From positions 641,977 to 705,976 of the forward strand of contig DDTK01000011.1 in NCBI GenBank assembly GCA_002344065.1: a DNA stretch of 64,000 nucleotides, in the 5' to 3' direction. The position numbers were made by a program, and so were the translations under genes. The DNA is from Flammeovirgaceae bacterium UBA2366 (lineage in GTDB: Bacteria > Bacteroidota > Bacteroidia > Cytophagales > Cyclobacteriaceae). Shown here piece after piece: positions 5,423 to 56,808 of the stretch. Each line of letters starts with the position of its first letter. Positions within the stretch are counted from its first letter, which is position 1. The notes beneath the pieces were generated by a model. That model saw only the letters and a list, made by a program, of their open reading frames with translations. It did no database searches and had not been told where the DNA came from.

Positions 5423-5467
5423 GATGAAAGTAAATTGAGTTGTATTAAATTAATGATGTTACGCATT

Positions 5468-5554: not shown

Positions 5555-5601
5555 ACGAAGAAAGATTTCAAGAATACAAAACCATGCGTAACATCAGTAA
5601 A

Positions 5602-10838: not shown

Positions 10839-10992
10839 AGTGGTTGTTTTTGGGTGTAATTTGGCGCCAAAGGTATATTATTTTTGAAAAAATGGGATAA
10901 ATTTTACCCTACTTAATAAAATTTTTGATAGAAAATATAAAATCTGGGTTTCAATTTAATTCAAGCGGTTGAAAACGCTGAAAATTCAACTA

Positions 10993-11766: not shown

Positions 11767-11777
11767 ATGCGAAATAA

Positions 11778-11806
11778 CAAAAAAATCCCGGCTCCATGGC
11801 CGGGAA
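11778..11806 (-). terminator. Rho-independent terminator downstream of 11813-12493
   Basis: On the minus strand: TCCCGG-(loop)-CCGGGA followed by TTTTTTTG. Confidence 0.65.
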
Positions 11807-11812
11807 TTTTCG

Positions 11813-12493: not shown

Positions 12494-12643
12494 AATGCTT
12501 ATTTTGATCTAAAGACAAGCGCCCCATACAGGGGTTGCATGACGGCTTAAAACGGTTGATTTTTTTGCAAGTGTATCAAAACATTGTAATTTTAGCTATA
12601 TTTCAACGATTTTAGAAGCGAATATAAACCAGCTGAAACGCAT

Positions 12644-13048
12644 ATGTCATTAAACACTAAAGCAGAACTTAATACTCTTATCAATTTAGCTGCCAGTGAC
12701 AGTAAAATTGAAGATCGTGAATCCAAGCTGATTCACATGATTGGAAAGGCTAATGGATTGACCGCAGATGAGGTTCAGGAAATGATTAATAAGCCTAAAC
12801 CCATCACCGATCTTTCGGCTATGACCAATGACGAAAAGTTTGAACACCTGTACTACCTCATTCAGATGATGAAAATGGATGGCCAGGTTTTCAGAAGCGA
12901 GATTATTTTTTGTGAATCCATTGCCGAGAAGCTAGGGTATAAGAAAGCTGTTGTAGGCGAGATGTCACAACACATCTATAGCGACCCATCCATTACAGCC
13001 GATCGGGAAATGCTCAGAAAGAAAGCTGAGAAATACATCCGGGACTAA
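12644..13048 (+). CDS. TerB-like (tellurite-resistance TerB fold) small protein
   Basis: 134 aa. The paired helical segments (DSKIEDRESKLIHMIG; DGQVFRSEIIFCESIAEKLG) resemble TerB-family repeats. This is a weak call. Confidence 0.45.
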   Translation: MSLNTKAELNTLINLAASDSKIEDRESKLIHMIGKANGLTADEVQEMINKPKPITDLSAMTNDEKFEHLYYLIQMMKMDGQVFRSEIIFCESIAEKLGYKKAVVGEMSQHIYSDPSITADREMLRKKAEKYIRD

Positions 13049-13067
13049 TTCAACCAAACCTATAACT

Positions 13068-13098
13068 CAAAATCCTGGCACAATCGCCAGGATTTTTC
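13068..13098. terminator. Bidirectional hairpin terminator between convergent genes
   Basis: AAAATCCTGGC-ACAATC-GCCAGGATTTTT: an 11-bp perfect stem with an A-run before it and a T-run after it. Confidence 0.75.
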
Positions 13099-13107
13099 TA
13101 TTTACGA

Positions 13108-15690: not shown

Positions 15691-17055
15691 CTACTCTATA
15701 GCCAAGCCATTCACAAACCGCACTACTCTGCTCTGTGGCCATTCGGGTTCTATCCGCTTAAGGTAATGATTAGCTTTTTCAAACTCCATAAATTTACCTG
15801 TATAAAAAAACGTAACACCATCTGCGTTCAGCACGCTGTCCAGGCCGTGAGGAAATGCGTCTGCCTTTTCTAATACAGAATAAACCTCTTCACTGTTTCT
15901 CGCTTCCCGTAAACGAACCGCATATGTGATAACTGTATCTGACGGAATTTCCATTAGCTCTGAAATTCCTTGGTTATACTTTCCCAGCAGTTTCCTTGAA
16001 TCGTCAATAAATGTTTTAAAAGCCAATTTTGATGGTTCATCTTTGATAAAATTGGTTGCATCATTTTCAAATGTTGATACTGGTAAAACATAAAAACTTC
16101 GTTTGCTATCAGTTGTTCGATAAACCCATTGCAACCGGTAGTTCGCGGTATCGATAGTGGTTACAGAAACGGTATCGGTAATAATTTTCTTCAGCTCCAC
16201 CTGAAGCATAGCTCCTCCATCCCGGTAACGGGGCCGTTGCCCCGACACAAAGTTACCGAGTGAATAGACCACCAATTGATTCTCTTCCTTTCGCCACTCC
16301 ATAGGCTGAAGCACATGAGGGTGCGCCCCAATCACCAACTGGGCCCCATGCCTAAAGCAAAATTCAGTAAGCTGTCTCTGCTGTTTTGTTGGTTGGTTTT
16401 CATACTCGTTGCCCCAATGCATAAAAACAATAGTAGCATCAGGTTGCAGTTCACGGGCACGTACAAGATCTTTTCGTATTAGTGCAGTATCAATGGGGTT
16501 TACAATATTGGGCTTTGTTACCGGAATCCCATTTGTACCATAGGTATAATTAAGCAATGCCAGTTTGAATCCATTTTTATGAATCAGCAACGGATAGTCA
16601 TTCATTCTCTCTACGGTATCCGTAAATGTGCCGGTATGTATAAGCTTAAGGCTGTCCAAAACTCTGATGGTTCGCTCCAGTCCTTTCTTTCTACGGTCAA
16701 CACTATGGTTGTTGGCGGTGACCAAAACATCCACACCAACTTGTTTTAAAGCCACGGCCAGTTCATCAGGCGCGCTGAATTGCGGATAACCCGTATAGGG
16801 TTTACCCGCCAGGGTTAACTCCAGGTTGCCTATGGTAAGATCAACGGATTGAAAATATGGTTTAAGAAATTGAAAACAATCTGTATAATCATGCTTACCG
16901 GTTTTTGAATGGTAGGCGGCATTAATCTGCGTTTCATGCTGCATAATATCACCAAGAAATAACAAGGAAATCCGTGCAGTATCCTGTGCGTTGATGAACT
17001 GCGCACAAAGAACCAGCAGTGAAAAAATTAAACCCTTATAAATTACAGATTTCAT
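15691..17055 (-). CDS. CapA-family metallophosphoesterase-like protein with a C-terminal extra domain
   Basis: 454 aa with a signal peptide and CapA hallmarks LLFLGDIMQHE, GNLEL and TANNHSVD. Confidence 0.75.
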   Translation of the reverse strand: MKSVIYKGLIFSLLVLCAQFINAQDTARISLLFLGDIMQHETQINAAYHSKTGKHDYTDCFQFLKPYFQSVDLTIGNLELTLAGKPYTGYPQFSAPDELAVALKQVGVDVLVTANNHSVDRRKKGLERTIRVLDSLKLIHTGTFTDTVERMNDYPLLIHKNGFKLALLNYTYGTNGIPVTKPNIVNPIDTALIRKDLVRARELQPDATIVFMHWGNEYENQPTKQQRQLTEFCFRHGAQLVIGAHPHVLQPMEWRKEENQLVVYSLGNFVSGQRPRYRDGGAMLQVELKKIITDTVSVTTIDTANYRLQWVYRTTDSKRSFYVLPVSTFENDATNFIKDEPSKLAFKTFIDDSRKLLGKYNQGISELMEIPSDTVITYAVRLREARNSEEVYSVLEKADAFPHGLDSVLNADGVTFFYTGKFMEFEKANHYLKRIEPEWPQSRVVRFVNGLAIE

Positions 17056-32843: not shown

Positions 32844-35495
32844 CTACTTATAAGCTACCGACATCTTTAGAATACGATCCTTCAACTGTTCACTGGTGAG
32901 TTTATCACGGCTAAGCCTGTCAACCATAATCGGAAAAGCAAAGGGCGTGGGCTTCTCTGGTCGCATCATGATTATTTTTTGATGGTTGATGCGGTCAAGG
33001 GCTTTACGCAACCGTGCTTCTTCCAGTTGAAAATCCATTACCTCTTCATACGCTTGCCGGAATAATAAATTATGCGCTTCATATTCGTGAAACACTTCAA
33101 AAAAAAGTTGGGAGGAAGATTGCAGGTGTCGGTCTTTTATCGGTTTACCCGGATAACCTTTAAACACCAATCCGGCAATGGAAGCTATGTCACGAAATTT
33201 TCTGCGGGCCATTTCGGTCGAGTTTATGCTGGACTGAATGTCCTTCATCAGTTCTTCGGTACCCAGCACGTTGGTTTCCACGGCTTCTTCAATCGGAATT
33301 TCCTGGTCGCTTAAAAGTTCAAAACCATAATCGTTCATAGCAATGGAAAAGGTGATGGGCTTGATCTTCGCGATGCGATACGCCACCAGCGCGGCCATGC
33401 CTTCATGCACGGCCCGACCTTCAAACGGGTACATCACCACATGGTGTCCTTCACCAGTTTCAAAATACTCAATAAGAAAATCACGTTTGCCCGGCAGGTG
33501 CGATCGCGACTTCTGTAAATCAAACAGAGGTTTTAAAAACGTAAGCTCTTCATCGTGCTCGTTTCCTTCCACTACTTCGTTAAGCTTATTACGAATGAGC
33601 TCGCTCAGTTGCGAGGATAAGGGCATCCTTCCACCCTGCCACGAAGGCACCAACCCCGATTTGCGTTTGCTTTTGCGCACCTGTGCTTCCATATCTTTTA
33701 TGCGCACCAGTTCCAGCACCTGGCCGGCAAACCAAAACGTATCCCCCGGATTTAACCGCGAAATAAAATACTCTTCAATGGTGCCCAGGTATTTTCCGGT
33801 AACGTACTTCACATGAAGTGATGTGTCGCCCACAATGGTGCCGATGGAAAGCCGGTGGCGTTGGGCAATCCTCCGGTCTTCTACTTTATAACGTCCATCT
33901 TTTTCAATAATCACTTTGCGGTATTCATCATAAGCCTGCAATGAGTCGCCACCGGTGGTAATAAAGTTGAGCATCCACTCCCACTCTTCATCGCTGATGC
34001 TGTTATAACTGAAGGTCGACCGGATCTCCTTTAAAATTTCATCGGGATAAAAACCATCCGACACGGCCAGCGTAACCAGGTATTGCATCAGCACATCAAA
34101 CGAGCGGATGTAGGGAATACGCTCCTCCACAATTCCTTTATCGATTGCTTCGCGCAATGCTGCGGCTTCCATCAACTCCAACGAATGTGTAGGAACAAAA
34201 TAAATCCGGCTCACGGCACCCGGCTGGTGACCACTGCGACCGGCACGCTGCAAGAAACGGGCAACACCTTTCGGACTGCCTACCTGTATTACTGTTTCCA
34301 CCGGACGGAAGTCGACCCCTAAATCCAAACTGGAAGTGCACACCACAGCTTTTAACTTACCATCATATAGTTGATCTTCCACCCAGTTGCGCATCTCTTT
34401 ACTGATTGACCCATGATGCATGGCGATAAGCCCTGAAAGCTCAGGTGCTTTGTCCAGCATTTTCTGATACCAAATCTCTGCGAAAGAACGTGTGTTGGTG
34501 AAGATGAGTGTGCTGGTGCTGCCCTTTACAATTTCTATCACCTTATCAAGCAATTGAATACCCAGGTGTCCCGCCCAGGGCATGGTTTCTACGGAGTCGG
34601 GCAAAACCGAAATGACTTCAACCTGCTTTTTGATGTCAGCTTTAATAAATATGGCGTCATTGCGAGAGAGTCCCGATGATAATTGGGACGACCGAAGCAA
34701 TCCCATTTCAGTTAAACCCATTCGGGATTGCTTCGCCCCGCTTTGTTGCGGGACTCGCAATGACGACTCCGAAGTGATTGATTCACCTACCAATATCTCA
34801 ATTGCCTGCTCCATATTGCCGATGGTTGCTGAAATACCCCATACTTTTAGTTGTGATGTTATCGTTCGTAAACGGGAGAGCGCCAACTCTACCTGCACCC
34901 CGCGTTTTGAGCCCATCAACTCGTGCCACTCATCGGCTACCACTACTTTCAACTCTTTAAAAAAATCAACGTAGTTTTTTTGGGCCAGCAGCAGGTGCAG
35001 ACTTTCAGGTGTGATAATGAGAAACTCCGGAGGTTTTGATTTCTGACGTTCACGATCTTTTGTAGAAGTATCACCCGACCGCACGCCTACTTTCCAGTTT
35101 AAGCCCAATCCTTCGATGGCACGGTTGGCCGAAAGTTCTATTTCTTTGGAAAGCGCCCGGATGGGTGTAATCCACAAAGCCTGTAAGCCCTGATTTCTTT
35201 TGGATAATTGATCAGGGTGGTCCCGTATAAACTCAAGCAGAATGGGTAATAATAAGGAGTACGTTTTACCACTTCCTGTAGGAGCATTTATTAGCCCACT
35301 TTTGCCTGCCAGGTAGGCTTGCCATGCCTCTCGCTGAAACGCAAAAGGCGTCCAGCCTTTCTGTTGAAACCAGTCTTCAGCAGGTTTTATGGTAGGTGTG
35401 CTTTTCACAGGCGGGAAGTTATCATGAAAAGCTATACTATTGAATTTTACACCGGCCTGGTTTGAATCAATCCCAAAACCAACTTGGTGAAACAT
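32844..35495 (-). CDS. lhr: Lhr-like DEXH-box helicase of the 'ligase-associated DNA damage response' type
   Basis: Motif I NAPTGSGKT, motif II VVADEWHE, motif III SAT, motif VI QRAGRSGH, and a long Lhr-type C-terminal domain. The start is set to the ATG at 35495. The 98 codons upstream in the track ORF overlap the divergent carH-like gene and show no helicase features. Confidence 0.85.
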   Translation of the reverse strand: MFHQVGFGIDSNQAGVKFNSIAFHDNFPPVKSTPTIKPAEDWFQQKGWTPFAFQREAWQAYLAGKSGLINAPTGSGKTYSLLLPILLEFIRDHPDQLSKRNQGLQALWITPIRALSKEIELSANRAIEGLGLNWKVGVRSGDTSTKDRERQKSKPPEFLIITPESLHLLLAQKNYVDFFKELKVVVADEWHELMGSKRGVQVELALSRLRTITSQLKVWGISATIGNMEQAIEILVGESITSESSLRVPQQSGAKQSRMGLTEMGLLRSSQLSSGLSRNDAIFIKADIKKQVEVISVLPDSVETMPWAGHLGIQLLDKVIEIVKGSTSTLIFTNTRSFAEIWYQKMLDKAPELSGLIAMHHGSISKEMRNWVEDQLYDGKLKAVVCTSSLDLGVDFRPVETVIQVGSPKGVARFLQRAGRSGHQPGAVSRIYFVPTHSLELMEAAALREAIDKGIVEERIPYIRSFDVLMQYLVTLAVSDGFYPDEILKEIRSTFSYNSISDEEWEWMLNFITTGGDSLQAYDEYRKVIIEKDGRYKVEDRRIAQRHRLSIGTIVGDTSLHVKYVTGKYLGTIEEYFISRLNPGDTFWFAGQVLELVRIKDMEAQVRKSKRKSGLVPSWQGGRMPLSSQLSELIRNKLNEVVEGNEHDEELTFLKPLFDLQKSRSHLPGKRDFLIEYFETGEGHHVVMYPFEGRAVHEGMAALVAYRIAKIKPITFSIAMNDYGFELLSDQEIPIEEAVETNVLGTEELMKDIQSSINSTEMARRKFRDIASIAGLVFKGYPGKPIKDRHLQSSSQLFFEVFHEYEAHNLLFRQAYEEVMDFQLEEARLRKALDRINHQKIIMMRPEKPTPFAFPIMVDRLSRDKLTSEQLKDRILKMSVAYK
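34655..34765. repeat. Nested palindromic repeat element (111 bp) lying in frame inside the helicase CDS
   Basis: Outer arms CGTCATTGCGAG (34655-34666) / CTCGCAATGACG (34754-34765). Second tier GAGTCCCG / CGGGACTC. Inner arms CGAAGCAATCCC (34693-34704) / GGGATTGCTTCG (34724-34735). It translates as SLRVPQQSGAKQSRMGLTEMGLLRSSQLSSGLSRND, the peptide signature of a widespread Bacteroidota intergenic repeat family. Confidence 0.75.
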
Positions 35496-35513
35496 TATTT
35501 GGGTATCTCTGTT

Positions 35514-35521
35514 TACATTTG
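35514..35521 (+). promoter_or_regulatory. Candidate Bacteroidota -7 box (TACATTTG) for the carH-like gene
   Basis: Matches TAnnTTTG 17 nt upstream of the ATG at 35538. I found no well-spaced -33 TTG. Confidence 0.3.
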
Positions 35522-35537
35522 AAAACCGATCTGATCC

Positions 35538-36416
35538 ATGGGCCAGTACTCTATTAAAGAACTCGAAAAGCTTTCCGGCATAAAAGCCCACACCATACGC
35601 ATCTGGGAAAAGCGGCACCACATTGTTGAGCCCCAACGCACCGATACCAACATCAGGCTGTACTCCGATGCAGATTTGAAGAAGATTATCAATGTTTCCC
35701 TGCTCAACACCAACGGGATCAAAATCTCCCACATTGCCGACATGACGCTGGAGGAAATAAACGGCAAAATCCTCGAGCTCAGCGAGCATAATACCGATAC
35801 GGTAATTTTCATAGACCAGTTAATTGTAGCCATGGTTGACCTTGACGAAGGGAAATTTGAAAAGCTTTTATCGGGTTTAATACTTCGCTTTGGCTTTGAG
35901 CGAACAGTTGTCGAAATAATTTACCCCTTCATGGAAAAAATTGGGGTACTGTGGCAAACCGAAAATGTTACCCCGGCACAGGAACACTTTATTTCCCATC
36001 TGATCAGACAAAAACTGATTGTAGCCATTGACGGATTATCCGTAATTCCAACCATACCAAAACGGGTATTACTTTACTTGCCTGAAAATGAATGGCATGA
36101 GTTAGGTCTCCTGTTCTACCATTACATTGTGCGCAAGGCAGGCTATAAAACTATTTACCTAGGACAGAGTGTGCCCTTCAAAGACGTAATCAGTGTTTCA
36201 GAAGCGCAACAACCTGATATTATTATTACGAGTATAATCAGCTCTCCTTTCGGAACAAAGGTGGAAGAATACCTCAGACAGCTGGCTACTGCCTTCCCAG
36301 CCAAGAAAGTTCTTGTTTCGGGGTATCAAACCAGGCATCTGGAAAAAAATAATTTCAAAAACATTGAGATTTTCCGAAACGTGCTGGATCTCAAGCAATT
36401 GTTATCTATTTCTTAA
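35538..36416 (+). CDS. carH: CarH/LitR-type MerR-family regulator with a B12-binding photoreceptor domain
   Basis: N-terminal MerR helix-turn-helix (YSIKELEKLSGIKAHTIRIWEKR). The Wx9EH motif is read directly (W-QTENVTPAQ-EH). The cobalamin lower-ligand motif ExHxxG (EWHELG) is followed about 41 residues later by S-I-I. The gene sits upstream of carotenoid genes. Confidence 0.85.
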   Translation: MGQYSIKELEKLSGIKAHTIRIWEKRHHIVEPQRTDTNIRLYSDADLKKIINVSLLNTNGIKISHIADMTLEEINGKILELSEHNTDTVIFIDQLIVAMVDLDEGKFEKLLSGLILRFGFERTVVEIIYPFMEKIGVLWQTENVTPAQEHFISHLIRQKLIVAIDGLSVIPTIPKRVLLYLPENEWHELGLLFYHYIVRKAGYKTIYLGQSVPFKDVISVSEAQQPDIIITSIISSPFGTKVEEYLRQLATAFPAKKVLVSGYQTRHLEKNNFKNIEIFRNVLDLKQLLSIS

Positions 36417-36423
36417 AGTATTT

Positions 36424-36516
36424 TTGTTTAACTGAAAATGAATTTATTTAAACAATTTTACTCTAATTAGCGTATATATCTTGTTTTTGTTAAACTTTTA
36501 ACTAATTTTGTTAAAC
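36424..36516 (+). promoter_or_regulatory. Cluster of TTGTT(T)AAAC-type repeats; candidate CarH/LitR operator
   Basis: TTTGTTAAAC occurs at 36486-36495 and 36507-36516 (21 bp apart), with a degenerate TTTTTAAC between them. TTGTTTAAC (36424-36432) and the inverted TTTAAACAA (~36447-36455) lie further upstream. Confidence 0.35.
36481..36510 (+). promoter_or_regulatory. Candidate Bacteroidota sigmaA-type promoter (-33 TTG, -7 TAATTTTG) for the sigma/crt operon
   Basis: TTG at 36481-36483, a 19-nt spacer, then TAATTTTG at 36503-36510 (TAnnTTTG consensus). The ATG is at 36531. Confidence 0.4.
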
Positions 36517-36530
36517 AAACAGCAAGAGCC

Positions 36531-37031
36531 ATGACAGCACTAGAATTCGATTATCAGATTGCCAGCCTGCGCCCCACATTAAAAACTTTCACCCGCAGAT
36601 TCACCAATGACAGAGAAGAGTCGCACGACCTGGTGCAGGACACCATTCTCAAGGCGCTCACGTACCGCACCAAGTTTCGTGAAAATACTAACCTTAAAGG
36701 GTGGCTCTTCACTATTATGCGTAACACGTTCATCAATAACTACCGGAAAAATCAGCGTGCCAAAACATCGCATGACGATACTAAAGAGTTGTACTTCCTG
36801 AACGTGGAAGACACGCACACCTTTAACTCCCCGGGATCAAACTTCGAGTATAAAGACATCTGGAACCAGGTGAACAGCTTACGCGATGAATTGCTTGTGC
36901 CGTTTAAGATGCACACCTCTGGTTACAAGTATCATGAGATTGCCGAACACCTCAACATACCGATTGGCACGGTGAAGAATCGGATTTTTCATGCACGTAA
37001 AGAAATACAAGGTAAGTTGGCCGGATATTGA
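36531..37031 (+). CDS. ECF-type RNA polymerase sigma-70 family factor (LitS/CarQ-like by context)
   Basis: 166 aa with region 2 (DLVQDTILKAL...GWLFTIMRNTFINNYRK) and region 4 (YKYHEIAEHLNIPIGTVKNRIFHARKEI). Confidence 0.85.
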   Translation: MTALEFDYQIASLRPTLKTFTRRFTNDREESHDLVQDTILKALTYRTKFRENTNLKGWLFTIMRNTFINNYRKNQRAKTSHDDTKELYFLNVEDTHTFNSPGSNFEYKDIWNQVNSLRDELLVPFKMHTSGYKYHEIAEHLNIPIGTVKNRIFHARKEIQGKLAGY

Positions 37032-37074
37032 TTATCTTGAATAGCTGAAAAAAAGATTTGGCCGGTAAAATCAC

Positions 37075-38556
37075 ATGAAAAAAGTTGCTGTTATAGGTTC
37101 AGGTTTTGCCGGATTATCCGCTGCTTGTCATCTTGCCAAAGCAGGCTACTCAGTAACTGTTTTTGAAAAAAACAGCACCCCGGGCGGACGCGCCAGGAAA
37201 TTTGAAGCCCAGGGATTTACTTTTGATATGGGGCCCAGCTGGTACTGGATGCCCGATGTATTTGAAAAGTTCTTTGCAGCCTTCGGCAAGAAACCATCCG
37301 ACTATTATACACTAGAACGATTGGATCCATCCTATCGGATTTATTACTCGGCTGAGGAACAACTCGATATTCCTTCCGGCATTGATGCCCTTTGCAAGAT
37401 GTTTGACCGGCTTGAGCCCGGCAGCAGTAAAAATCTCTTGAAATTTCTGGAGGAAGGAAAATACAAATATGAAATCGGGATTAATGAACTGGTTTATAAA
37501 CCTGGTTTGTCACTTTTAGAATTGGCCGATCCCAAATTAATGACCGGAGTTTTTAAACTACATGTCTTTCAATCCATATCCACATACGTTAGAAAATATT
37601 TTAAAGAAAAGAAGTTAATCCAGTTACTGGAATTTCCGGTATTGTTTCTGGGAGCAACCCCTCAAAAAACTCCCGCGCTATACAGTTTAATGAACTATGC
37701 TGATATGGCTTTAGGAACCTGGTATCCGCAGGGTGGCATGCATAAAATTATTGAAGGCATGGTACAACTGGCAACTGAGCTTGGGGTAACATTTGAATTC
37801 AATAGTGCCGTTCAACACTTGGAATTAAATGCAGTGAAGGCAAAAGGTGTAATGGTTAATAACCAATTCAGACCTTTCGACTACATCATTGCCGGTGCGG
37901 ATTATCATCATGTAGAGCAAACCCTGATACCGGAATCCTTCAGACGTTACGATGCCTCATATTGGGATAACAGGGTAATGGCACCTTCAAGCCTTATCTT
38001 CTACCTGGGGCTTAACAAAAAACTTGATGGGGTTCTTCATCACACACTATTCTTCGATCAGGATTTCGGCAAACATTCAGAAGAGATTTACGAAAACCCG
38101 CAGTGGCCTAGCAGTCCTCAGTTTTATATCAGTTGTCCATCCAAAACAGATGCCACCGTTGCACCTGCCGGTCATGAAAATGTTTTTATTCTTATACCGG
38201 TAGCGCCCGGTTTAAAGGATGATGAAACTACTCGTGAGCACTACTTTAACCTGGTAATGGAACGCTTTGAGAAAATGACCGGGCAATCCATTCGCGACAG
38301 TGTTGTATTTAAGCGTAGCTATGCCCATAATGATTTTATGGCTGATTATAATTCCTTTAAAGGAAATGCCTACGGATTAGCCAACACCTTGCTGCAAACA
38401 GCAAATCTTAAACCCAGTATGGTAAACAAAAAAATAAAAAACCTGTTTTATACAGGGCAATTAACCGTGCCAGGGCCGGGTGTACCCCCTTCCCTGATTT
38501 CGGGACAGGTAGTTGCTGGAGAGTTGGTAAAACGGGATAAAAAGTATAAACAATGA
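37075..38556 (+). CDS. crtI: Phytoene desaturase
   Basis: 493 aa with the N-terminal FAD fold VAVIGSGFAGLSAA...EKNSTPGGRA and the C-terminal CrtI signature (FYTGQLTVPGPGVP). Confidence 0.9.
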   Translation: MKKVAVIGSGFAGLSAACHLAKAGYSVTVFEKNSTPGGRARKFEAQGFTFDMGPSWYWMPDVFEKFFAAFGKKPSDYYTLERLDPSYRIYYSAEEQLDIPSGIDALCKMFDRLEPGSSKNLLKFLEEGKYKYEIGINELVYKPGLSLLELADPKLMTGVFKLHVFQSISTYVRKYFKEKKLIQLLEFPVLFLGATPQKTPALYSLMNYADMALGTWYPQGGMHKIIEGMVQLATELGVTFEFNSAVQHLELNAVKAKGVMVNNQFRPFDYIIAGADYHHVEQTLIPESFRRYDASYWDNRVMAPSSLIFYLGLNKKLDGVLHHTLFFDQDFGKHSEEIYENPQWPSSPQFYISCPSKTDATVAPAGHENVFILIPVAPGLKDDETTREHYFNLVMERFEKMTGQSIRDSVVFKRSYAHNDFMADYNSFKGNAYGLANTLLQTANLKPSMVNKKIKNLFYTGQLTVPGPGVPPSLISGQVVAGELVKRDKKYKQ

Positions 38557-38578
38557 GATTGATTAACTTTACTTCGTA

Positions 38579-39415
38579 ATGAAAGAACTTTACGACAAAG
38601 TTGCTATTCGATGCAGCCAGTTAACCACCCGGGCTTACAGTACCTCTTTTTCGTTAGGTATTCTGTGTCTTAAAAAAGAATTGCGCAATCCGATTTACAG
38701 TATTTATGGTTTTGTCAGGTTTGCTGATGAGATTGTAGACACCTTTCACGACTACAATAAGCAGGACTTATTCATGCGTTTTAAGGAGGAGACCTATAAA
38801 GCCATTGAAGATGGTATAAGCCTGAATCCCATCCTTCACAGTTTTCAGGAAACAGTACGAAAATATTCTATCGACCGTTCTTCCATTGATTTGTTTTTGC
38901 GCAGCATGGAAATGGATCTGAGTTTGAAAAGCTACGATCAGGAGGGTTTAAAGGAATATATTTTGGGCTCGGCAGAAGTGGTGGGTTTAATGTGCCTGCG
39001 TGTATTTGTAAAAGGTGACGATGCCTCGTATGAAAAACTCAAACCCATGGCCATGAGCCTGGGTTCAGCGTTTCAAAAAATAAATTTTCTCCGCGACCTG
39101 AATGCCGACTTCCTGCATATGGGACGTTCCTATTTTCCAGGATTAGATTTTGAAAAATTTGATGATGCCAAAAAAACGGAAATTGAAGAAAGCATCAAGA
39201 TAGATTTTGAAGAAGGTCTAAAAGGTATTAAACTGCTGCCCCGGTCTTCTCGCTTCGGGGTGTATGTAGCTTACGTTTATTATACAGCCCTCTTCAATAA
39301 GATAAAAAATACACCTTGCGAGCGCGTACTGGAAAGTCGGATACGCATTCGCAACAGGCACAAAGCCACCCTTCTGGCCTACTCCTACGTTAAACACCAA
39401 CTGAATCTGATCTGA
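38579..39415 (+). CDS. crtB: Phytoene synthase
   Basis: 278 aa, squalene/phytoene synthase family: YGFVRFADEIVD (Asp-rich 1), GSAEVVG, and INFLRDLNAD (Asp-rich 2 region). Confidence 0.9.
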   Translation: MKELYDKVAIRCSQLTTRAYSTSFSLGILCLKKELRNPIYSIYGFVRFADEIVDTFHDYNKQDLFMRFKEETYKAIEDGISLNPILHSFQETVRKYSIDRSSIDLFLRSMEMDLSLKSYDQEGLKEYILGSAEVVGLMCLRVFVKGDDASYEKLKPMAMSLGSAFQKINFLRDLNADFLHMGRSYFPGLDFEKFDDAKKTEIEESIKIDFEEGLKGIKLLPRSSRFGVYVAYVYYTALFNKIKNTPCERVLESRIRIRNRHKATLLAYSYVKHQLNLI

Positions 39416-39945
39416 TGGAGGAGTACGTTATTTTAGTGGACGAGCATGACAACGAATTGGGCGCCATGGAAAAAATGGAAGCCCATATAAAAGGTGTTTT
39501 ACATCGTGCTTTTTCCGTGCTCGTATTCAACACGAAAGGTGAAATGCTGATTCAAAGACGGGCCGATTGTAAATACCACAGCGCAGGTTTGTGGACAAAC
39601 ACATGTTGTAGTCACCCACGGGCTGGCGAGGAGATTGAAGAAGCAGCCCAACGCAGACTCAGGGAAGAAATGGGGCTTAATCTTCAACCGGAAAAAGCCT
39701 ATTCCTTTATTTATAGAATTGAACTGGATGGCGGACTGATAGAGAATGAGCTAGATCATGTGTTAATCGCCACATACGATGGCGAGCCCGTGCTTAACCC
39801 GGAAGAAGCGCAGGACTGGAAGTATATCAGTTTTTCTGCGTTAAAAGCCCGAATGAAATCCCATCCGCAAGAATTCACGCATTGGTTCAAACTGATTGTC
39901 AATCACCCAGAACTGAATGCTTTGGTAACAGCCTTGCCGATTTGA
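39415..39945 (+). CDS. idi: Isopentenyl-diphosphate delta-isomerase, type 1 (Nudix)
   Basis: 176 aa with HRAFSVLVFN and TNTCCSHPRAGE (catalytic Cys region) plus a Nudix-like E-rich helix. The start overlaps the crtB stop by 1 nt (TGATG). Confidence 0.9.
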   Translation: MEEYVILVDEHDNELGAMEKMEAHIKGVLHRAFSVLVFNTKGEMLIQRRADCKYHSAGLWTNTCCSHPRAGEEIEEAAQRRLREEMGLNLQPEKAYSFIYRIELDGGLIENELDHVLIATYDGEPVLNPEEAQDWKYISFSALKARMKSHPQEFTHWFKLIVNHPELNALVTALPI

Positions 39946-39990
39946 ACATACACACGGTCTGCTTGTTATAATTCAAAAATCCAAGTACCT

Positions 39991-40158
39991 ATGTTCTCTT
40001 TTCTAAAAAAAGATCCGATCAACAATCTTGAAAATAAGCGTAAAAAATTACTGGAAGAGGCGATGCACATTCAGCGCTCAGGCGACCTGAAATTATACGC
40101 AGTTAAGATGGAAGCCATTGACAAACTGGAAAAGGAAATTGAAGCGCTTCGAAAATGA
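39991..40158 (+). CDS. Small helical protein (55 aa), Lacal_2735/DUF6435-like; absent from the ORF track because it is under 60 aa
   Basis: Hand-translated: MFSFLKKDPINNLENKRKKLLEEAMHIQRSGDLKLYAVKMEAIDKLEKEIEALRK, with a TGA stop at 40156-40158. It resembles a small-protein family recurrently annotated in Bacteroidota; this is from memory and not verified. Confidence 0.55.
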   Translation: MFSFLKKDPINNLENKRKKLLEEAMHIQRSGDLKLYAVKMEAIDKLEKEIEALRK

Positions 40159-41464
40159 TGCGGGCATTCAGGCCGTTGATGCAAATACTTGCCTTTTCTG
40201 GATGCGCAGGGATTTGCGGCTTCACGACAATGCCGGCCTATACCATGCCTTAAAAGAAAACAGCTCCGTACTGCCTGTTTTTATTTTTGATACTACCATC
40301 CTTGATAAACTGGATGATCCGGCCGATGCACGGGTGGAGTTTATTCATCAATCGCTCTACCTGATCAAGGAAGAACTTGAGGCCATTGGTTCTTCCCTGC
40401 TGGTACTTCATGGCAATCCGGAAGATATTTTTAAAACACTTGAACCCAAATCGGTTTACACCAACAACGATTACGAGCCCTACGCCCGCCAGCGTGATGA
40501 TGCCGTGAAGAAAATCCTCGGGTTAAAGAACATCGAATTTAAAGCATTCAAAGACCAGGTTATCTTCGAAAAAGCTGAAATCGTTAAAGATGATGGCAAG
40601 CCCTATACAGTCTATACACCATACAGCAAAAAATGGAAGGCCACATTGAAGCCAGAACACTACCGCAGCTTCAAAAATGAAGATCACTTTGATCATTTTA
40701 AAAAGATCAAAACGCTTCCGTTCCCAACACTTAAAGACATCGGATTTAAGCCATCCGGGCTGACTTTTCCGGAACGAAAAATCCGGCAAAGCATCATTGA
40801 GAAATACCACCTTCAGCGTGATTTGCCTGCTATTGAAAGCACCTCGCGCCTGAGTGTTCACCTACGCTTTGGTACCATAAGCATTCGCAAACTGGTTCAA
40901 GTAGCCCTTCAGAAAAATGAAAAGTGGTTAAATGAATTGATCTGGCGCGATTTCTACCATATGATTCTATGGCACTTTCCAACCGTTGAAAGAGCATTTA
41001 AGCCTGCTTACGATCGAATTGAGTGGCGCAACAATCCTGAAGAATTTAAGGCCTGGTGTGAGGGTAAAACGGGTTACCCCATTGTTGATGCCGGCATGCG
41101 TGAACTTAACGCCACGGGTTTTATGCACAACCGTGTACGCATGATTGTAGCAAGCTTTCTCACTAAACATTTACTGATCGACTGGCGATGGGGCGAAGCA
41201 TACTTTGCCAAAAAACTTCTCGACTTTGATTTAGCGGCTAACAATGGCGGCTGGCAATGGGCTGCAGGCTCAGGTTGTGACGCAGCACCTTACTTTCGTG
41301 TTTTTAACCCTTACATCCAGACGGAAAAATTCGATCCGGAAAATAAGTATATCAAAAAATGGATACCGGAATTTGGCACAAAGGATTATCCTAAACCGAT
41401 AGTAGAGCATGCCTTCGCACGCGACCGGGTATTAGCCGTATACAAAGAAGCACTTAACACATAG
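40118..41464 (+). CDS. Cryptochrome/photolyase-family protein (class I CPD photolyase or Cry-DASH type)
   Basis: FWMRRDLRLHDNAGL N-terminal alpha/beta domain. FAD domain with TSRLSVHLRFGTIS, LIWRDFY, TGYPIVDAGMREL, GFMHNRVRMIVASF and GGWQWAAGSGCDAAPYFRVFNP. The start is uncertain: the TTG at 40118 and the TTG at 40139 both overlap the small ORF. Confidence 0.85.
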   Translation: MTNWKRKLKRFENDAGIQAVDANTCLFWMRRDLRLHDNAGLYHALKENSSVLPVFIFDTTILDKLDDPADARVEFIHQSLYLIKEELEAIGSSLLVLHGNPEDIFKTLEPKSVYTNNDYEPYARQRDDAVKKILGLKNIEFKAFKDQVIFEKAEIVKDDGKPYTVYTPYSKKWKATLKPEHYRSFKNEDHFDHFKKIKTLPFPTLKDIGFKPSGLTFPERKIRQSIIEKYHLQRDLPAIESTSRLSVHLRFGTISIRKLVQVALQKNEKWLNELIWRDFYHMILWHFPTVERAFKPAYDRIEWRNNPEEFKAWCEGKTGYPIVDAGMRELNATGFMHNRVRMIVASFLTKHLLIDWRWGEAYFAKKLLDFDLAANNGGWQWAAGSGCDAAPYFRVFNPYIQTEKFDPENKYIKKWIPEFGTKDYPKPIVEHAFARDRVLAVYKEALNT

Positions 41465-41467
41465 TTC

Positions 41468-41620
41468 ATGCGTGGTGTAAAGAAATCTGATCTGCCGGAA
41501 AAAATTTGTGTTGTGTGCAACCGACCGTTTACCTGGCGCAAAAAATGGGAGAAGGTATGGAATGAAGTAAAATACTGCAGCGACCGTTGCCGGAGTTCAA
41601 AAACTCCGTCATTATGCTGA
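41468..41620 (+). CDS. DUF2256 zinc-ribbon protein (50 aa); absent from the ORF track
   Basis: Hand-translated: [50 protein letters not shown], with a stop at 41618-41620. CxxC...Cx3C and the FTWRKKW...VKYCS.RCR pattern match DUF2256. Confidence 0.75.
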
Positions 41621-41670
41621 ATCTGAGCCATAGCGCATAACCTTACAGCGTCCTGCGTGTTTGATCTAGC

Positions 41671-43134
41671 ATGGATGTTTCCATGATTTTCCCCCATCAA
41701 TTGTTCAAATCAAATCCTGCCCTGAAAAAAGGACGGAACACCATACTTATTGAAGAAGATCTGTTCTTTACGCACCATCCGTTTCATAAACAAAAGCTGG
41801 TTCTTCACCGGGCCTCCATGAAAAGCTATGAAAAGCAGTTGGAGAAGAAAGGCATAAACATCTCGTACATCGAAAACGAAAAGGGAAAAACACTTTCGAA
41901 ACTATTTAACAAGCTGAACAAAACAGGTGTAACTTCTATTCACTACACCGATACCGTTGATTACTTATTGGAACGCAGGTTAAATCGTTATGCCGGGAAG
42001 TGCGGAATAAAATTGATTCAATACCCCTCTCCTAACTTCATTTGCTCCGAAGATTTTATTCATACCTTCTTCAGCAAAAAGAAACGCTATTTTCAAACCG
42101 ATTTTTACATTGAATTAAGAAAACAAAACAACATTTTAATTGATAAAGGTACTCCCGAAGGTGGATCATGGACCTACGATGTATTGAACCGAAAGCGATT
42201 ACCATCAGCTATTTCAATCCCTGCCCGACAGACATTATCCGAGAATTCATTTGTTGTTGAAGCAAAAAAATATGTAGAGAAGAATTTCCCTGAACACTAC
42301 GGATCGGTTGAAGATTTCAACTACCCCATAAACTGTGAACAAGCCGGGCAAACGCTTGATAAATTTATAGCTGATTACTTTAGTCAGTATGGTGATTACC
42401 AGGATGCCATCGATAAAGAAGACTCCTTTCTTTTTCATTCTGTGTTAACACCCAGTTTGAATATTGGTTTACTTCAGCCCGAAGACATTTTAGATGAGGC
42501 AATAAAAGCTTACACCAGAAAAAGAATTCCGCTTAACTCGGTTGAAGGATTTGTTCGGCAAATATTAGGTTGGCGGGAATTTATTCGATCTGTCTACATC
42601 CGTGAAGGTGTTCGTGAACGAACCACCAACTACTTTAACCATCATCGAAAAATTCCAACATCATTCTACACCGGAACAACGGGCATTGGGCCGGTTGATG
42701 CAGTAATTAAGCGCATACTTAAAACCGGGTATGCCAATCACATTGAACGACTAATGATTCTTGGAAATTTTATGTTACTCTGCGGATTTCACCCGGATGA
42801 CATTTATAAATGGTTTATGGAACTGTTTATCGATGCTTACGACTGGGTTATGGTACCCAACGTGTATGGTATGAGCCAGTTTGCGGATGGCGGGTTGATG
42901 GCAACCAAACCTTATATCAGTGGATCGAATTATATCTTAAAGATGAGTCACTATAAAAAAGGAGAATGGTGCAACATTTGGGATGGCCTGTACTGGAAAT
43001 TTATTGATACGCATAAAGAATTATTTATCAAAAACCCAAGGATGAGCATGATGGCAAAGCTTTTGGAAAAAATGGATTCATCCAGGCGAAAAAAACTTTT
43101 CCACGCGGCTGACAACTTCCTTAAATCAGTATGA
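41671..43134 (+). CDS. FeS-BCP / (6-4) photolyase-like cryptochrome-photolyase family protein (COG3046 type)
   Basis: 487 aa. The N-terminus (IFPHQLF...ILIEEDLFF...HKQKLVLHRASM) and C-terminal half (GWREFIR, GYANHIERLMILGNF, DAYDWVMVPNVYGMSQFADGG, YISGSNYILKMS) are typical of PhrB/CryB-type proteins. Confidence 0.8.
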   Translation: MDVSMIFPHQLFKSNPALKKGRNTILIEEDLFFTHHPFHKQKLVLHRASMKSYEKQLEKKGINISYIENEKGKTLSKLFNKLNKTGVTSIHYTDTVDYLLERRLNRYAGKCGIKLIQYPSPNFICSEDFIHTFFSKKKRYFQTDFYIELRKQNNILIDKGTPEGGSWTYDVLNRKRLPSAISIPARQTLSENSFVVEAKKYVEKNFPEHYGSVEDFNYPINCEQAGQTLDKFIADYFSQYGDYQDAIDKEDSFLFHSVLTPSLNIGLLQPEDILDEAIKAYTRKRIPLNSVEGFVRQILGWREFIRSVYIREGVRERTTNYFNHHRKIPTSFYTGTTGIGPVDAVIKRILKTGYANHIERLMILGNFMLLCGFHPDDIYKWFMELFIDAYDWVMVPNVYGMSQFADGGLMATKPYISGSNYILKMSHYKKGEWCNIWDGLYWKFIDTHKELFIKNPRMSMMAKLLEKMDSSRRKKLFHAADNFLKSV

Positions 43135-43616
43135 TGAAAAGCCTGCGCAAAAAACCCTGGAACCGAGTTGATCAACCCGTGTACAGCATCGCAAGCAAAG
43201 CCGGTGGTCAGGCAAATATGAACATCTGTTCGTATGTTACACCTGTCTCGATGAAACCCAAGCAGTTTATTGTTGCCATCTACAAAAATACCTTAACACT
43301 GGAACTGGTCAGGAAAAACCCTGAATTTATATTGCAATATCTGACCCGCGATCAACACCGATTAATTACTCTGCTAGGGAAAAAGTCTGGTTATTCCATA
43401 GACAAAATTCAACGACTGAAAAACAAGGTTGAATCTTTCAATGATTTTGTAGTCTTAAAAGATTGCCTGGCGTATGTTCACTTGAAGGCTGTGGCCTGGC
43501 TTGATGGAGGCGACCATTGGTGTGCCCTCTGCAATGTTATTGCCTATAAAAATATACAGGAAGCCGTACCGTTAACGCTTGATTACCTTCGGGATAAAAA
43601 AATTATCTCAGCATGA
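43131..43616 (+). CDS. Flavin reductase-like (split-barrel FMN-binding) domain protein
   Basis: 161 aa. The pattern ...NMNICSYVTPVSMKPKQFIVAIYKNTLTLELV... resembles the flavin reductase/HpaC-like fold. ATGA start/stop overlaps at both ends. Confidence 0.6.
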   Translation: MMKSLRKKPWNRVDQPVYSIASKAGGQANMNICSYVTPVSMKPKQFIVAIYKNTLTLELVRKNPEFILQYLTRDQHRLITLLGKKSGYSIDKIQRLKNKVESFNDFVVLKDCLAYVHLKAVAWLDGGDHWCALCNVIAYKNIQEAVPLTLDYLRDKKIISA

Positions 43617-44719
43617 TTACGTCCGTAAAGTCATTGAAGGAATTAAACAACGACATTGACCGGCTCGACCCGGTGGCGTATGGCCAAACCCGAAACTACC
43701 TCGATGGTGCCGTCAGCAAGCTATCTCCCTATATTAGTCGTGGTTTTATTACACTACCCTACCTGAAAGACCGGATACTATCACGTGTTTCCTTACCCGA
43801 TGCCGAATCATTTATTTACGAATTATGCTGGCGGGAATATTTTCAACGCATCTGGTTTGCGCAAGGCGATAAAATATTTACCGACTTTAAAAATAAACAA
43901 CTACCTATTGCGCATTACCACTTGCCTCAGGTACTGCTGGAAGCAACCACAGGAATTCACGTAATCGATGAGCAACTTAAATCACTTTATTCTTCCGGTT
44001 ATATGCATAATCATGCGCGCATGTACATCGCATCATTGGCGTGCAATATAGCCCGGGCACATTGGTTGGTTCCTTCACGCTGGCTATACTATCATTTATT
44101 GGATGGCGATCTGGCCAGCAATGCGCTTAGCTGGCAGTGGGTGGCTGGTACATTCAGCTCAAAAAAATATTACTTTAACCAAAACAACGTGAATACCTAC
44201 AGCCGGACTGTACAGCAGCATACCTTCATGGATTTTTCATACGAAGAAATTATGAAAATGAACACCCCACCTGCTTTACAAGAAACATCTGAACTTACGC
44301 TTAAAACTATCCTGCCAAAACCTACATCCTTATCGCTTGATTATACCAAATCACTTTTCCTGTACACTTCGTATACCCTCGATCCACAGTGGCGTACCAA
44401 TACAAATGCCAACCGTCTACTTGTGCTTGAACCCTCTCATTTTAATTCGTTTCCTGTATCGGATAACGCTTTAAACTTTATCCTTTCCTTGGCAGAAAAA
44501 ATAAATGACCTTCAGGTTTATGTGGGCGAAGTGACCAACCTGCCCGGCCTGGAGGAATTTCCGGAAATTATCAGTAAACAGCACCCGACAACCCAACACT
44601 TTCCGGGACATAAAGATGAGCCAGCGTGGATGTTTCCGGAGGTTCCGGAGCCTCGCGGATCCTTCACAGGATTTTGGAAAAGTTGTGAAAAAGTATTGAT
44701 AAGGAACACACCCATATGA
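43613..44719 (+). CDS. Photolyase-homology protein with only the FAD-binding helical domain plus a ~150-aa C-terminal domain
   Basis: 368 aa. It begins directly with the FAD-domain entry motif (YGQTRNYLDGAVSKLSPYISRGFI). ELCWREYFQ, GYMHNHARMYIASL and LLDGDLASNALSWQWVAGT follow. No N-terminal alpha/beta antenna domain is present. Confidence 0.75.
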   Translation: MITSVKSLKELNNDIDRLDPVAYGQTRNYLDGAVSKLSPYISRGFITLPYLKDRILSRVSLPDAESFIYELCWREYFQRIWFAQGDKIFTDFKNKQLPIAHYHLPQVLLEATTGIHVIDEQLKSLYSSGYMHNHARMYIASLACNIARAHWLVPSRWLYYHLLDGDLASNALSWQWVAGTFSSKKYYFNQNNVNTYSRTVQQHTFMDFSYEEIMKMNTPPALQETSELTLKTILPKPTSLSLDYTKSLFLYTSYTLDPQWRTNTNANRLLVLEPSHFNSFPVSDNALNFILSLAEKINDLQVYVGEVTNLPGLEEFPEIISKQHPTTQHFPGHKDEPAWMFPEVPEPRGSFTGFWKSCEKVLIRNTPI

Positions 44720-46155
44720 AATCGCTAACCATTTTACTTACCGGTTCAACTGGCTATATCGGCAGGCGTTTATTGCCGGTGTTGCTCGAACAAGGGCATC
44801 ATATCATTTGTCTCGTTCGTGATAAGCGCAGGTTCGATTTCGAAGATTTTTCGGATGAGCATCAGCAACACCTGTCGGTAGTGGAAGCTGACCTGAATAA
44901 TCCGGATACGTTAAAGCAGCTGCCAAAAGAGATTGACCTGGCCTACTACCTTGTTCATTCCATGAGCACCTCGGAAGATTTTCTGGCACTCGAACAGAAA
45001 TCAGCGGAAACATTTGTAGGCTACATTAACCAAACTACAGCTAAACAAATTATTTACCTCAGCGGAATTGTAAACGATCCTTCTCTCTCTAAACACCTGA
45101 GCTCCAGAAAAAATGTAGAAGATATTTTAAGTCAGTCTACAGCCCGTTTAACCGTATTGCGCGCTGCAATTATTATTGGTTCCGGAAGTGCCTCATTCGA
45201 AATCATCCGCGATCTGGTGGAGAAGCTACCGGTAATGATTGCACCCAAATGGCTGAAAAGTCGCTGCCAACCTATTGGCATTCGAAATGTTATTGAGTAC
45301 CTGATTGGTGTGATTTTAAAAGAAGAAACATTCGGACAGTCTTTTGATATTGGCGGACCAGACATAGTTACTTACAAAGAAATGCTGATGGGCTATGCGC
45401 GTGTACGCGGATTGAAACGCTGGATCATTCCGGTGCCGGTGTTATCACCGCAGCTCTCTTCACACTGGCTTTATTTTGTTACGTCAACATCCTTCACGCT
45501 GGCCAAAAGTCTGGTGAGCAGTTTAAAAAATGAAGTTATCTGTTCCGACAATCGTATCCAGGCAATTGTTCCTCTAAAATTACTTAACTACGAAGAAACG
45601 TTACGCTTAACACTCGATCGCATTCAGCAACGGCTGGTAATTTCAAGTTGGAAAGATGCAGTTCCTACCGATGCCATCGATCAAAACTTTCTGAACTATA
45701 TTGAAGTACCCACCTTTGGCTGTTTCAATGATAAGCGAACCATAACGTTTAACCGGCCTAAAGAAGAGGTTATTGACAACATCTGGAAAATCGGAGGAGA
45801 CCAGGGGTGGTATTATGGTAACTGGATGTGGCGCATACGCGGATTCGTTGATAAACTTTTTGGAGGCGTGGGGTTAAGGCGCGGACGAAGAAATGCCACT
45901 GATTTGAAGGCGGGTGATGCCCTCGATTTTTGGCGGGTATTGCTGGCCGATAAGAAAAACGGAAGGCTACTGCTCTATGCCGAAATGAAATTACCCGGAG
46001 AAGCCTGGCTGGAGTTCAAAATTCAGGAAAATATTTTAGTTCAAACGGCAACATTTCGACCACTCGGTCTGTGGGGACGTATTTACTGGTACGCTGTGCT
46101 CCCCTTTCATGGCCTTATTTTTCCCGGCATGATCAGAAACATTGTACGGGTTTAG
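44716..46155 (+). CDS. NAD(P)-binding SDR/NmrA-like domain fused to DUF2867
   Basis: 479 aa with Rossmann LLTGSTGYIGRRL. The C-terminal region (GDALDFWRV...LYAEMKLPGEAWLEF) is typical of DUF2867. Confidence 0.75.
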   Translation: MKSLTILLTGSTGYIGRRLLPVLLEQGHHIICLVRDKRRFDFEDFSDEHQQHLSVVEADLNNPDTLKQLPKEIDLAYYLVHSMSTSEDFLALEQKSAETFVGYINQTTAKQIIYLSGIVNDPSLSKHLSSRKNVEDILSQSTARLTVLRAAIIIGSGSASFEIIRDLVEKLPVMIAPKWLKSRCQPIGIRNVIEYLIGVILKEETFGQSFDIGGPDIVTYKEMLMGYARVRGLKRWIIPVPVLSPQLSSHWLYFVTSTSFTLAKSLVSSLKNEVICSDNRIQAIVPLKLLNYEETLRLTLDRIQQRLVISSWKDAVPTDAIDQNFLNYIEVPTFGCFNDKRTITFNRPKEEVIDNIWKIGGDQGWYYGNWMWRIRGFVDKLFGGVGLRRGRRNATDLKAGDALDFWRVLLADKKNGRLLLYAEMKLPGEAWLEFKIQENILVQTATFRPLGLWGRIYWYAVLPFHGLIFPGMIRNIVRV

Positions 46156-56725: not shown

Positions 56726-56808
56726 GATTCAAGATTCAAAATTTGAGATTCAAGATTAATTTCGCTCATATTCATCTAATTCTGAATTTTGAACTTTGAA
56801 TTTTGAAT
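56726..56808. repeat. Inverted-repeat element with 7-bp periodic arms (GATTCAA... / TGAATTT TGAACTT TGAATTT TGAATTA)
   Basis: Read directly. Same family as 112-226 and 59713-59782. It lies inside the MFP-ATPase intergenic spacer and reaches the MFP stop codon. Confidence 0.6.

Follow-up and report, generated by a model that had tools for sequence, protein, structure and literature searches.

A probable in-frame insertion of a CGTC-type palindromic repeat in an Lhr-like helicase gene of a Cyclobacteriaceae bacterium

A stretch of 64,000 nucleotides from Flammeovirgaceae bacterium UBA2366 (Bacteroidota, Cyclobacteriaceae; assembly GCA_002344065.1, contig DDTK01000011.1, positions 641,977 to 705,976) was analyzed around a nested palindromic element of 111 bp which lies inside a helicase gene. 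This whole stretch is referred to as the window. A preliminary description of the sequence had named an Lhr-like helicase as the host gene and the identification was borne out. The protein matched NCBIfam TIGR04121 with 1126 bits against a curated cut-off of 850, the alignment running in two stretches broken at the element. The Pfam domains DEAD, Helicase_C, WH_Lhr and DEAD_assoc were present in the open reading frame (ORF) at 32844-35789 (-). The nearest solved structures were those of Mycobacterium smegmatis Lhr-core (5V9X) and full-length Lhr (7LHL), and the 5V9X alignment also broke at the element. No ligase, PdeM or exonuclease partner gene adjoined this "ligase-associated" helicase. The ORF encodes 981 aa from its first ATG (35789) and at that length overlaps the divergent MerR/B12-binding regulator gene (35538-36416). 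Ortholog starts align with a GTG at 35408, which is probably the true start and gives a protein of 854 aa, not 981 aa or the 883 aa first described. This shorter frame is open and all of the helicase motifs are kept. Public gene calls for the window helicase vary in length (656, 859, 883, 962 and 981 aa). The 656-aa form is the NCBI call in Cyclobacteriaceae metagenome-assembled genomes (MAGs) and is truncated at the N-terminus, starting at M199 just upstream of the element. Independent assemblies at NCBI, JGI, Logan and ENA include at least 23 contigs which encode exactly the window helicase protein.

The element spans codon 215 position 2 to codon 252 position 1 of the 854-aa helicase. Its minus-strand translation is S-SLRVPQQSGAKQSRMGLTEMGLLRSSQLSSGLSRND-A and the predicted junction peptides are ...ITSESSLRVPQQSGAK and ...GLSRNDAIFIK. 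The 111 bp equal 37 codons and translation confirmed that the reading frame is kept. The location between motif III and the second RecA domain was supported by the ortholog alignment and by the TIGR04121 and 5V9X breaks. The best database matches of the helicase were Cyclobacteriaceae and Flammeovirgaceae MAG proteins. Orthologs at 89-90% identity are 822-826 aa long (most 824 or 826) and all lack the 37 residues. The linker, measured as the stretch from SATIGN (motif III) to PWAGH in 110 orthologs, has 42 residues in 66 of them. The window linker has 78 residues, or 41 after deletion of the 111 nt. The 37 residues are regarded as an insertion because the close orthologs lack them and because the linker is near its baseline length after their removal. 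In an AlphaFold2 model built from a 55-sequence alignment residues 210-249 had a predicted local distance difference test score (pLDDT) of ~30 and no secondary structure. This disordered stretch was flanked by a helix (199-207) and a strand (252-256), and RecA1 was well modeled. The model is consistent with the 37-residue insert forming a surface loop. An in-frame event in a tolerant linker, like those of the Rickettsia palindromic elements (RPEs), had been proposed in the preliminary description with ortholog alignment and structure modeling as checks, and the ortholog, domain and structure evidence agreed with it.

Nowhere else in the window are two perfect 12-bp inverted repeats nested as in the element (Table 1). 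The perfect outer and inner arms already noted were recovered by arm search, and all 32 arm pairs are perfect. No further site for the element 12-mers was present in the window at ≤1 mismatch, where shuffles gave 0.2-0.3 matches. A three-tier hairpin had been described. The 8-bp arms of the middle tier do exist but have 3 nt in common with the outer arm (CTC, 34754-34756), so the three tiers cannot all form fully together. The predicted minimum-energy fold is instead an outer stem around three local hairpins. The RNA fold had a free energy of -60.6 kcal/mol (z -6.5) and the DNA folds of either strand had -35.2 and -35.7 kcal/mol (z -8.9 and -8.8), and no shuffle folded as well in any of these comparisons. 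The half units are laid out as CGTC-ATTGCGAG ... GAAGCAAT-CCC, each with an extra small hairpin, and an ATTGC/GCAAT stem of 5 bp is predicted in both (CGTC-ATTGC ... GCAAT-CCC). The window half units are predicted to fold via the added internal hairpin, with energies of -9.2 and -7.3 kcal/mol. The ORF on the opposite strand which had been pointed out is present but carries no weight, as open frames are a property of the family to which the element belongs (mean of 3.3 of six frames per copy vs 2.2 of six in shuffles). No Rfam match was found in the whole window at gathering thresholds. With the element alone at E up to 10 the sole match was the Brucella small RNA BSR0626 (13.5 bits), which is at chance level. 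A literature search for the arm sequences gave unrelated primers only. A terminator or promoter function of the element was rejected because no terminator-like or promoter-like site was located there. An origin of the palindrome in situ was rejected because its arms are identical to those of a cross-phylum family.

Table 1. Coordinates of the element, its parts and the surrounding coding features in the window
Feature	Position	Strand	Remarks
Nested palindromic element, 111 bp	34655..34765	(-)	Head-to-head dimer of two CGTC-tagged half units; read in frame as 37 helicase codons
Outer arm, 5' side in gene orientation, CGTCATTGCGAG, with CGTC tag	34754..34765	(-)	Perfect, 12 nt
Outer arm, 3' side in gene orientation, CTCGCAATGACG	34655..34666	(-)	Perfect, 12 nt
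Inner arm, 5' side in gene orientation, CGAAGCAATCCC	34724..34735	(-)	Perfect, 12 nt
Inner arm, 3' side in gene orientation, GGGATTGCTTCG	34693..34704	(-)	Perfect, 12 nt
8-nt arm pair, GAGTCCCG / CGGGACTC	34668-34675/34749-34756		Perfect
Local hairpin A, TCCCGC AACAAA GCGGGG, between outer and inner arm of the 5' half unit	34736..34753	(-)	Folding
Local hairpin C region, GTCGTCCC AATTATCATC GGGAC TCT, 3' half unit	34667..34692	(-)	Folding
Central loop, 19 nt, spacer separating the half units	34705..34723	(-)	
Inter-domain linker and insert	34655..34787	(-)	From the last RecA1 helix after motif III (GISATIGN) to the first RecA2 strand
Host gene, ligase-associated DNA damage response DEXH-box (Lhr-core-like) helicase, 854 aa from GTG	32844..35408	(-)	TIGR04121, Pfam, PDB homology
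Opposite-strand ORF, 130 aa	34582..34974	(+)	Antisense to the conserved helicase gene; judged spurious

The arms of the element match a widespread repeat family. The last 11 bases of the 12-mer CGTCATTGCGAG are GTCATTGCGAG, the scan motif that recovered the family copies. A genome collection was scanned with GTCATTGCGAG ... GAAGCAATCC ... GGATTGCTTC and at least 120 genome stretches (L007-L126) carried the family motif. Alphaproteobacteria (Bradyrhizobium, sphingomonads, Rhodopseudomonas and Rickettsiales) were the majority among the matches listed, which also included Gammaproteobacteria (Coxiellaceae, Berkiellales and Solimonas), Spirochaetaceae and a few Bacteroidota (Bacteroidales and Chitinophagales). 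No Cyclobacteriaceae record was among the matches listed. The preliminary description had taken the element for a common Bacteroidota intergenic repeat. The family does occur elsewhere and is mostly intergenic, but its home among the matches listed is mostly the Alphaproteobacteria. The family pattern was also present in 85 viral or proviral contigs of IMG/VR (L128-L207), which could be vectors of cross-phylum spread or misclassified host DNA. Some of the IMG/VR contigs, such as L183 and L187, hold several tandem copies. The subfamily 20-mer had no match in IMG/VR and the 111-mer had no BLASTN match in PLSDB plasmids. A phmmer search of 1.84 billion representatives with a 42-aa peptide query gave nothing at E <= 0.001.

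More than 100 of the family copies are head-to-head dimers of 70-135 bp with the tags outside and a spacer of variable length. The CGTC tag is carried by 158 retrieved copies. The canonical form is CGTC-ATTGCGAG-(CGAAGC or GAGCGAAGCGAC)-GAAGCAAT-CCA followed by a loop and the inverse. The 3-nt tail is GAAGCAATCCA in most copies and CCC or CCG in a minority. It is CCC in the window element and in the copies at loci L004 and L127, which are described below, and pairs with GGG within the dimer. These three also have in common GTCGTCCC, the subfamily signature. A canonical half unit folded alone had -2.7 kcal/mol (z ~0) and is predicted not to be stable. It contains GCGAAGC, an unusually stable DNA mini-hairpin which is underrated by nearest-neighbour models. 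The canonical dimers of L007-L126 are often heterodimers of a short half (CGAAGC) and a long half (GAGCGAAGCGAC), so that the hairpin is bulged. In some canonical copies a further conserved hairpin module, CCAACGGGTC...GCCCGATGACAGGCTCCGCGA, separates the outer arm from the inner arm. Approximately 160 of 200 family copies have no spanning ORF. Where such ORFs occur in high-GC genomes they mostly look spurious, and in low-GC genomes the copies lie between genes. Several intergenic copies per 8-kb locus were seen in Bradyrhizobium and others. One apparently genuine in-frame case was found in the Bacteroidales MAG L065. This is a 70-bp copy at 3453-3522, apparently read in frame (RHCEALSAEAIQKEVDCFATLAMT) in an ORF of 366-410 aa without a Pfam match. 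A Y1_Tnp homolog lies at 7256-7717 of L065, 3.7 kb from the family copy.

The element was compared to known repeat systems. CGTC-tagged repetitive extragenic palindromes (REPs) have been described in several phyla, Bacteroidetes among them (Di Nocera, De Gregorio & Rocco 2013, BMC Genomics 14:522, PMC3733652). As in the published REPs, each unit here has a terminal CGTC tag at its outer end, the window element reading CGTC...GACG, and the stem opens with A-T pairs directly after the tag. A short CC(A/C) tail may be a further likeness, the published consensus being an unpaired CCA. Both form head-to-head dimers with the tags outside and with small stem-loops in the spacers. In both Alphaproteobacteria dominate, here among the matches listed, with further members in Bacteroidetes and Spirochaetes, and copies are mainly intergenic with occasional in-frame intragenic copies of 20-40 residues. 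An intragenic excess in DNA-repair genes and the lack of a dedicated transposase are also points of likeness. In the published set the over-representation of intragenic copies in DNA-repair genes is left unexplained, and different REPs occur at about the same site of Xanthomonas recB (PMC3733652). The stem differs, with 5 bp here (ATTGC/GCAAT) compared to 8-9 bp and a 4-5 nt loop in the published families. This 5-bp stem closes the GCGAAGC mini-hairpin in canonical copies and a longer hairpin in the window copy. The peptides encoded here (SLR..SRND, RHCE..LAMT and VIAS..) are also not among the intragenic CGTC-1 to CGTC-4 peptides listed in that paper. The element probably works like a CGTC REP head-to-head dimer and is probably a further sequence type of that superfamily, set apart by the listed peptides. 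Membership in CGTC families 1-4 is not claimed as proven.

Rickettsia palindromic elements inserted in genes were reportedly described by Ogata et al., in work said to have appeared in 2000 (Science 290:347) and 2002 (Genome Res). RPEs resemble the window element in being palindromic selfish repeats which lie in frame in genes for functional proteins, at fold-compatible sites and with several readable frames (PMC10969869). Two of them are also CGTC-tagged, with R. conorii RPE-6 equal to CGTC-1 and RPE-4 equal to CGTC-4 (PMC3733652). The suggestion in the preliminary description that in-frame insertion had no prior account for such repeats was therefore too strong, as intragenic CGTC-tagged REPs including RPE-4 and RPE-6 are reported in that paper. 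The RPE-4/CGTC-4 and RPE-6/CGTC-1 peptides given there (VIPWLDHGI, SFLRKQES, DSRFRGND ...) differ from those found here when compared by peptides only. The window element is also unlike RPEs in sequence and in the phylum and lifestyle of its host, a free-living member of the Cyclobacteriaceae, and one copy was present in the 64 kb covered compared to dozens of genes per Rickettsia genome. REP doublets forming hairpins (REPINs) and the REP-associated tyrosine transposases (RAYTs) are reportedly treated by Bertels & Rainey in 2011 and Nunvar et al. in 2010. A REPIN likewise consists of two inverted REP units which form one long hairpin and is taken as the mobile unit. REPINs are GTAG-tagged and flank a RAYT gene, whereas the tag here is CGTC and the window has no Y1 transposase. 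Bacterial miniature inverted-repeat transposable elements (ERIC, BOX, Nezha, Correia/NEMIS and Coxiella QMITE1; PMC10969869, PMC5896051) are also small non-autonomous structured repeats which are sometimes intragenic and translated. No target-site duplication, terminal inverted repeats derived from an insertion sequence (IS) or partner transposase was recognized here.

Further palindromes were found in Lhr-family genes of other loci. L004 (ortholog P0028) has an independent 114-bp family copy in the same linker with identical 12-bp outer arms, again ending in CGTCATTGCGAG, and with inner arms GAAGCAATCCCC. This copy is read as RHCE...LAMT in the opposite orientation and in a different frame, ~2 nt from the homologous window position. 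The same linker holds unrelated perfect in-frame palindromes in L002 (CCCCCCTT/AAGGGGGG), L005 (CACCTCCCTT/AAGGGAGGTG and TCCCCCCT/AGGGGGGA) and L006 (CCACTAAAAAC/GTTTTTAGTGG, with a nested 9-bp pair). None of these recurred in 8-22 kb of flanks. A metagenome collection was scanned with the subfamily signature as a DNA pattern (GGGACGACCGAAGCAATCCC...GGGATTGCTTC) and a single contig, L127, was found, with the match in frame inside a full-length Lhr gene of 1663 aa (8845-13836, minus strand). The collection does not contain the JGI contigs L216 and L217, which both carry the pattern, and its negatives are uninformative. Three inter-domain linkers of the L127 gene are occupied, by two dimers and a single unit, with a unit read as VIAS.., and no further family unit was present elsewhere on the 14-kb locus. 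The 119 listed homologs of L127 Lhr have 1434-1572 aa (all but ~ten have 1440-1500) and are without the inserts. L127 is a probable Bacteroidota metagenome contig and its Lhr is ~200 residues longer than the homologs. It also has long low-complexity inserts, one of them in the linker from motif III to RecA2.

The insertion point is common to three alleles, that of the window (identical in L215-L217), that of L001 and that of L213/L214. The L213/L214 element has one substitution, which is in a hairpin loop. The L001 element has two uncompensated substitutions which break arms and change the DNA fold from -35.2 to -26.1 kcal/mol. No compensatory changes were found in the element among the three alleles. 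The dN/dS of the helicase was 0.17 between the window and L001, and between the window and L213 dN was 0.009-0.012 and dS 0.38-0.48. Judged from these sequences the helicase is still under purifying selection. Differences between the window and L001 are concentrated in the first third of the gene, with 27 of 30 within codons 1-310 of the helicase. Over its first 450 nt L213 has only 61-83% identity to the window and resembles the P0007 lineage, while the remainder has 87-95%. The helicase gene is clearly a mosaic, which points to recombination within it.

The region beside the helicase (35538-46155) encodes a MerR-B12 (CarH/LitR-like) regulator, an extracytoplasmic function sigma factor, phytoene desaturase and synthase, a NUDIX protein and a photolyase/cryptochrome. 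These genes make up a conserved light/UV-type cluster, and its synteny is kept in L001, L003 (GCA_019638255.1), L005 and L213. Other imperfect inverted repeats of ATTCAAGATT/AATCTTGAAT-like units occur in the window at 121-225 and 56734-56808. A pair of 21-nt inverted arms, 90% complementary and 117 nt apart, occurs at 5446-5466 and 5584-5604. In L005 (CP054185.1) an IS200-like Y1 transposase gene (PF01797) at 16289-16753 lies 4 kb downstream of the helicase and is surrounded by a type I restriction-modification locus.

A recent in-frame insertion of a CGTC-type palindromic dimer into a tolerant linker between the RecA domains, now drifting and without host function, is considered the likely explanation with good confidence. 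A non-autonomous palindromic repeat of two inverted CGTC-tagged half units would have entered the helicase coding sequence recently. It may have persisted through a length that is a multiple of three, a stop-free frame and a linker that is disordered and variable in length. The insert would be translated as a 37-residue surface loop with the helicase continuing to work. By analogy with REPs and with IS200/IS605, mobilization may have involved a single-stranded DNA hairpin handled in trans, with an HUH tyrosine transposase or replication or repair enzymes as candidates. In related species other palindromes have entered the same linker, and selection evidently filters insertions to the tolerant spot. 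The element is seen as a recent functionless passenger because its arms are perfect, no compensatory change has occurred and related copies are read in other frames. A function at the peptide level is not favored because the L004 and L127 copies are read in other frames and in opposite orientation.

Several observations weigh against this explanation. The window and L213 elements differ at only one of 111 nt, while synonymous divergence in the flanks is 0.38-0.67. No synonymous change is present in the element where ~11 were expected from the flank dS, and the divergence is ~40-fold below the neutral expectation. The tract of low divergence extends from -13 to +126, counted from the start of the element, and so coincides with it. 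Between the window and L001 the element has diverged at about the neutral rate. The L001 and L213 comparisons do not fit any single model of vertical descent and neutral decay, and the low L213 divergence calls for recent spread by recombination, gene conversion, re-insertion or constraint. Recent spread of the insertion allele by recombination is favored because the helicase gene is visibly mosaic. In addition, the 64-kb window and ~90 kb of related Cyclobacteriaceae loci and flanks contained no second copy. The ends of the window element are 12-bp inverted repeats, and neither the 158 copies nor the junctions in the window, L004 and L127 revealed a target motif or target-site duplication. 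By tblastn no partner Y1 transposase was found in the window and only one of ~200 family-bearing loci (L065) had one, which did not flank the element. The structure model is modest (mean pLDDT 63.8). Every subfamily copy observed sits in an Lhr-family gene, which random insertion followed by tolerance does not predict.

This last point bears on the possibility that the subfamily is targeted to, or preferentially colonizes or is retained in, the inter-domain linkers of Lhr-family genes for mechanistic reasons, which is considered unlikely. Such a preference could take the form of a hot spot, of genes acting as refuges from deletion or of feedback between the hairpin and a structure-processing helicase. 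In the window, L004 and L127 the subfamily lies inside Lhr-type genes and is missing from their flanks, L127 came out of an unbiased DNA-pattern scan, and the window and L004 insertions are ~2 nt apart in opposite orientations. The linkers of L002, L005 and L006 contain other palindromes which are absent from their flanks, and the DNA-repair-gene excess of intragenic REPs and the same-site REPs in Xanthomonas recB would fit as well (PMC3733652). However, L127 was the only truly unbiased draw, L004 having come from inspection of orthologs, and the survey of homologs covered Lhr-type genes only. The family was found in 0 of ~230 other Lhr-type homologs, the junctions have no conserved target sequence and the L127 insertion sites differ from the window site. 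An inter-domain linker is also the expected place of any tolerated indel. That CGTC-type elements target, home to, or are retained and horizontally spread in Bacteroidota Lhr linkers, and so are no random passengers, is likewise given little probability. The Lhr location of all subfamily copies observed, the independent hits on one linker in several orthologs and the ~40-fold lower divergence between two lineages would agree with it. A palindrome selected as a functional nucleic-acid element, regulating the helicase for example by blocking transcription, by binding a protein or by serving as a site of mRNA processing or stability, is rated lower still and is improbable. The synonymous changes missing from the tract shared with L213 and the very stable predicted structure would suit such a role. 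The two uncompensated arm-breaking changes in L001 at very low overall divergence argue against it, and the loops are conserved as well as the stems, which indicates recent common origin and not structural selection. Most orthologs lack the element, the absence of terminator-like or promoter-like sites and of Rfam matches above noise also counts against a functional element, and recombination in a mosaic gene can account for the pattern. An assembly chimera, a pseudogenizing insertion or removal or bypass of the insert at the RNA or translation level is highly improbable. The NCBI call starting at M199 does show that the locus disturbs annotation pipelines. An assembly artefact was nevertheless rejected because many independent contigs of the four sources carry the identical insert. 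The frame is open with conserved helicase motifs and a dN/dS far below 1, and neither a multiple-of-three length nor a stop-free frame would be needed if the insert were bypassed or spliced.

Events of this type have been recorded before in Rickettsia and other bacteria. What is added here is the repeated hits on the same linker and on Lhr-family genes, and the odd conservation pattern. In-frame colonization of proteins by palindromic repeats is extended to a free-living Bacteroidota lineage, by a repeat type which appears not to be among the published intragenic CGTC REPs. One orthologous linker provides a natural series, in which some sites are empty, two received the family independently and several hold other palindromes. 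The series shows how a conserved enzyme may come to vary in length and gain new surface loops through structured selfish DNA. The insert also disturbs annotation, giving a 656-aa NCBI call, 981 aa with other callers and split hidden Markov model matches. If Lhr targeting were true it would suggest that a structured selfish element and a helicase able to act on it are functionally linked, and might account for the surplus of REPs inside DNA-repair genes. Should the association with Lhr and other DNA-repair genes be real, the bias reported in 2013 becomes testable.

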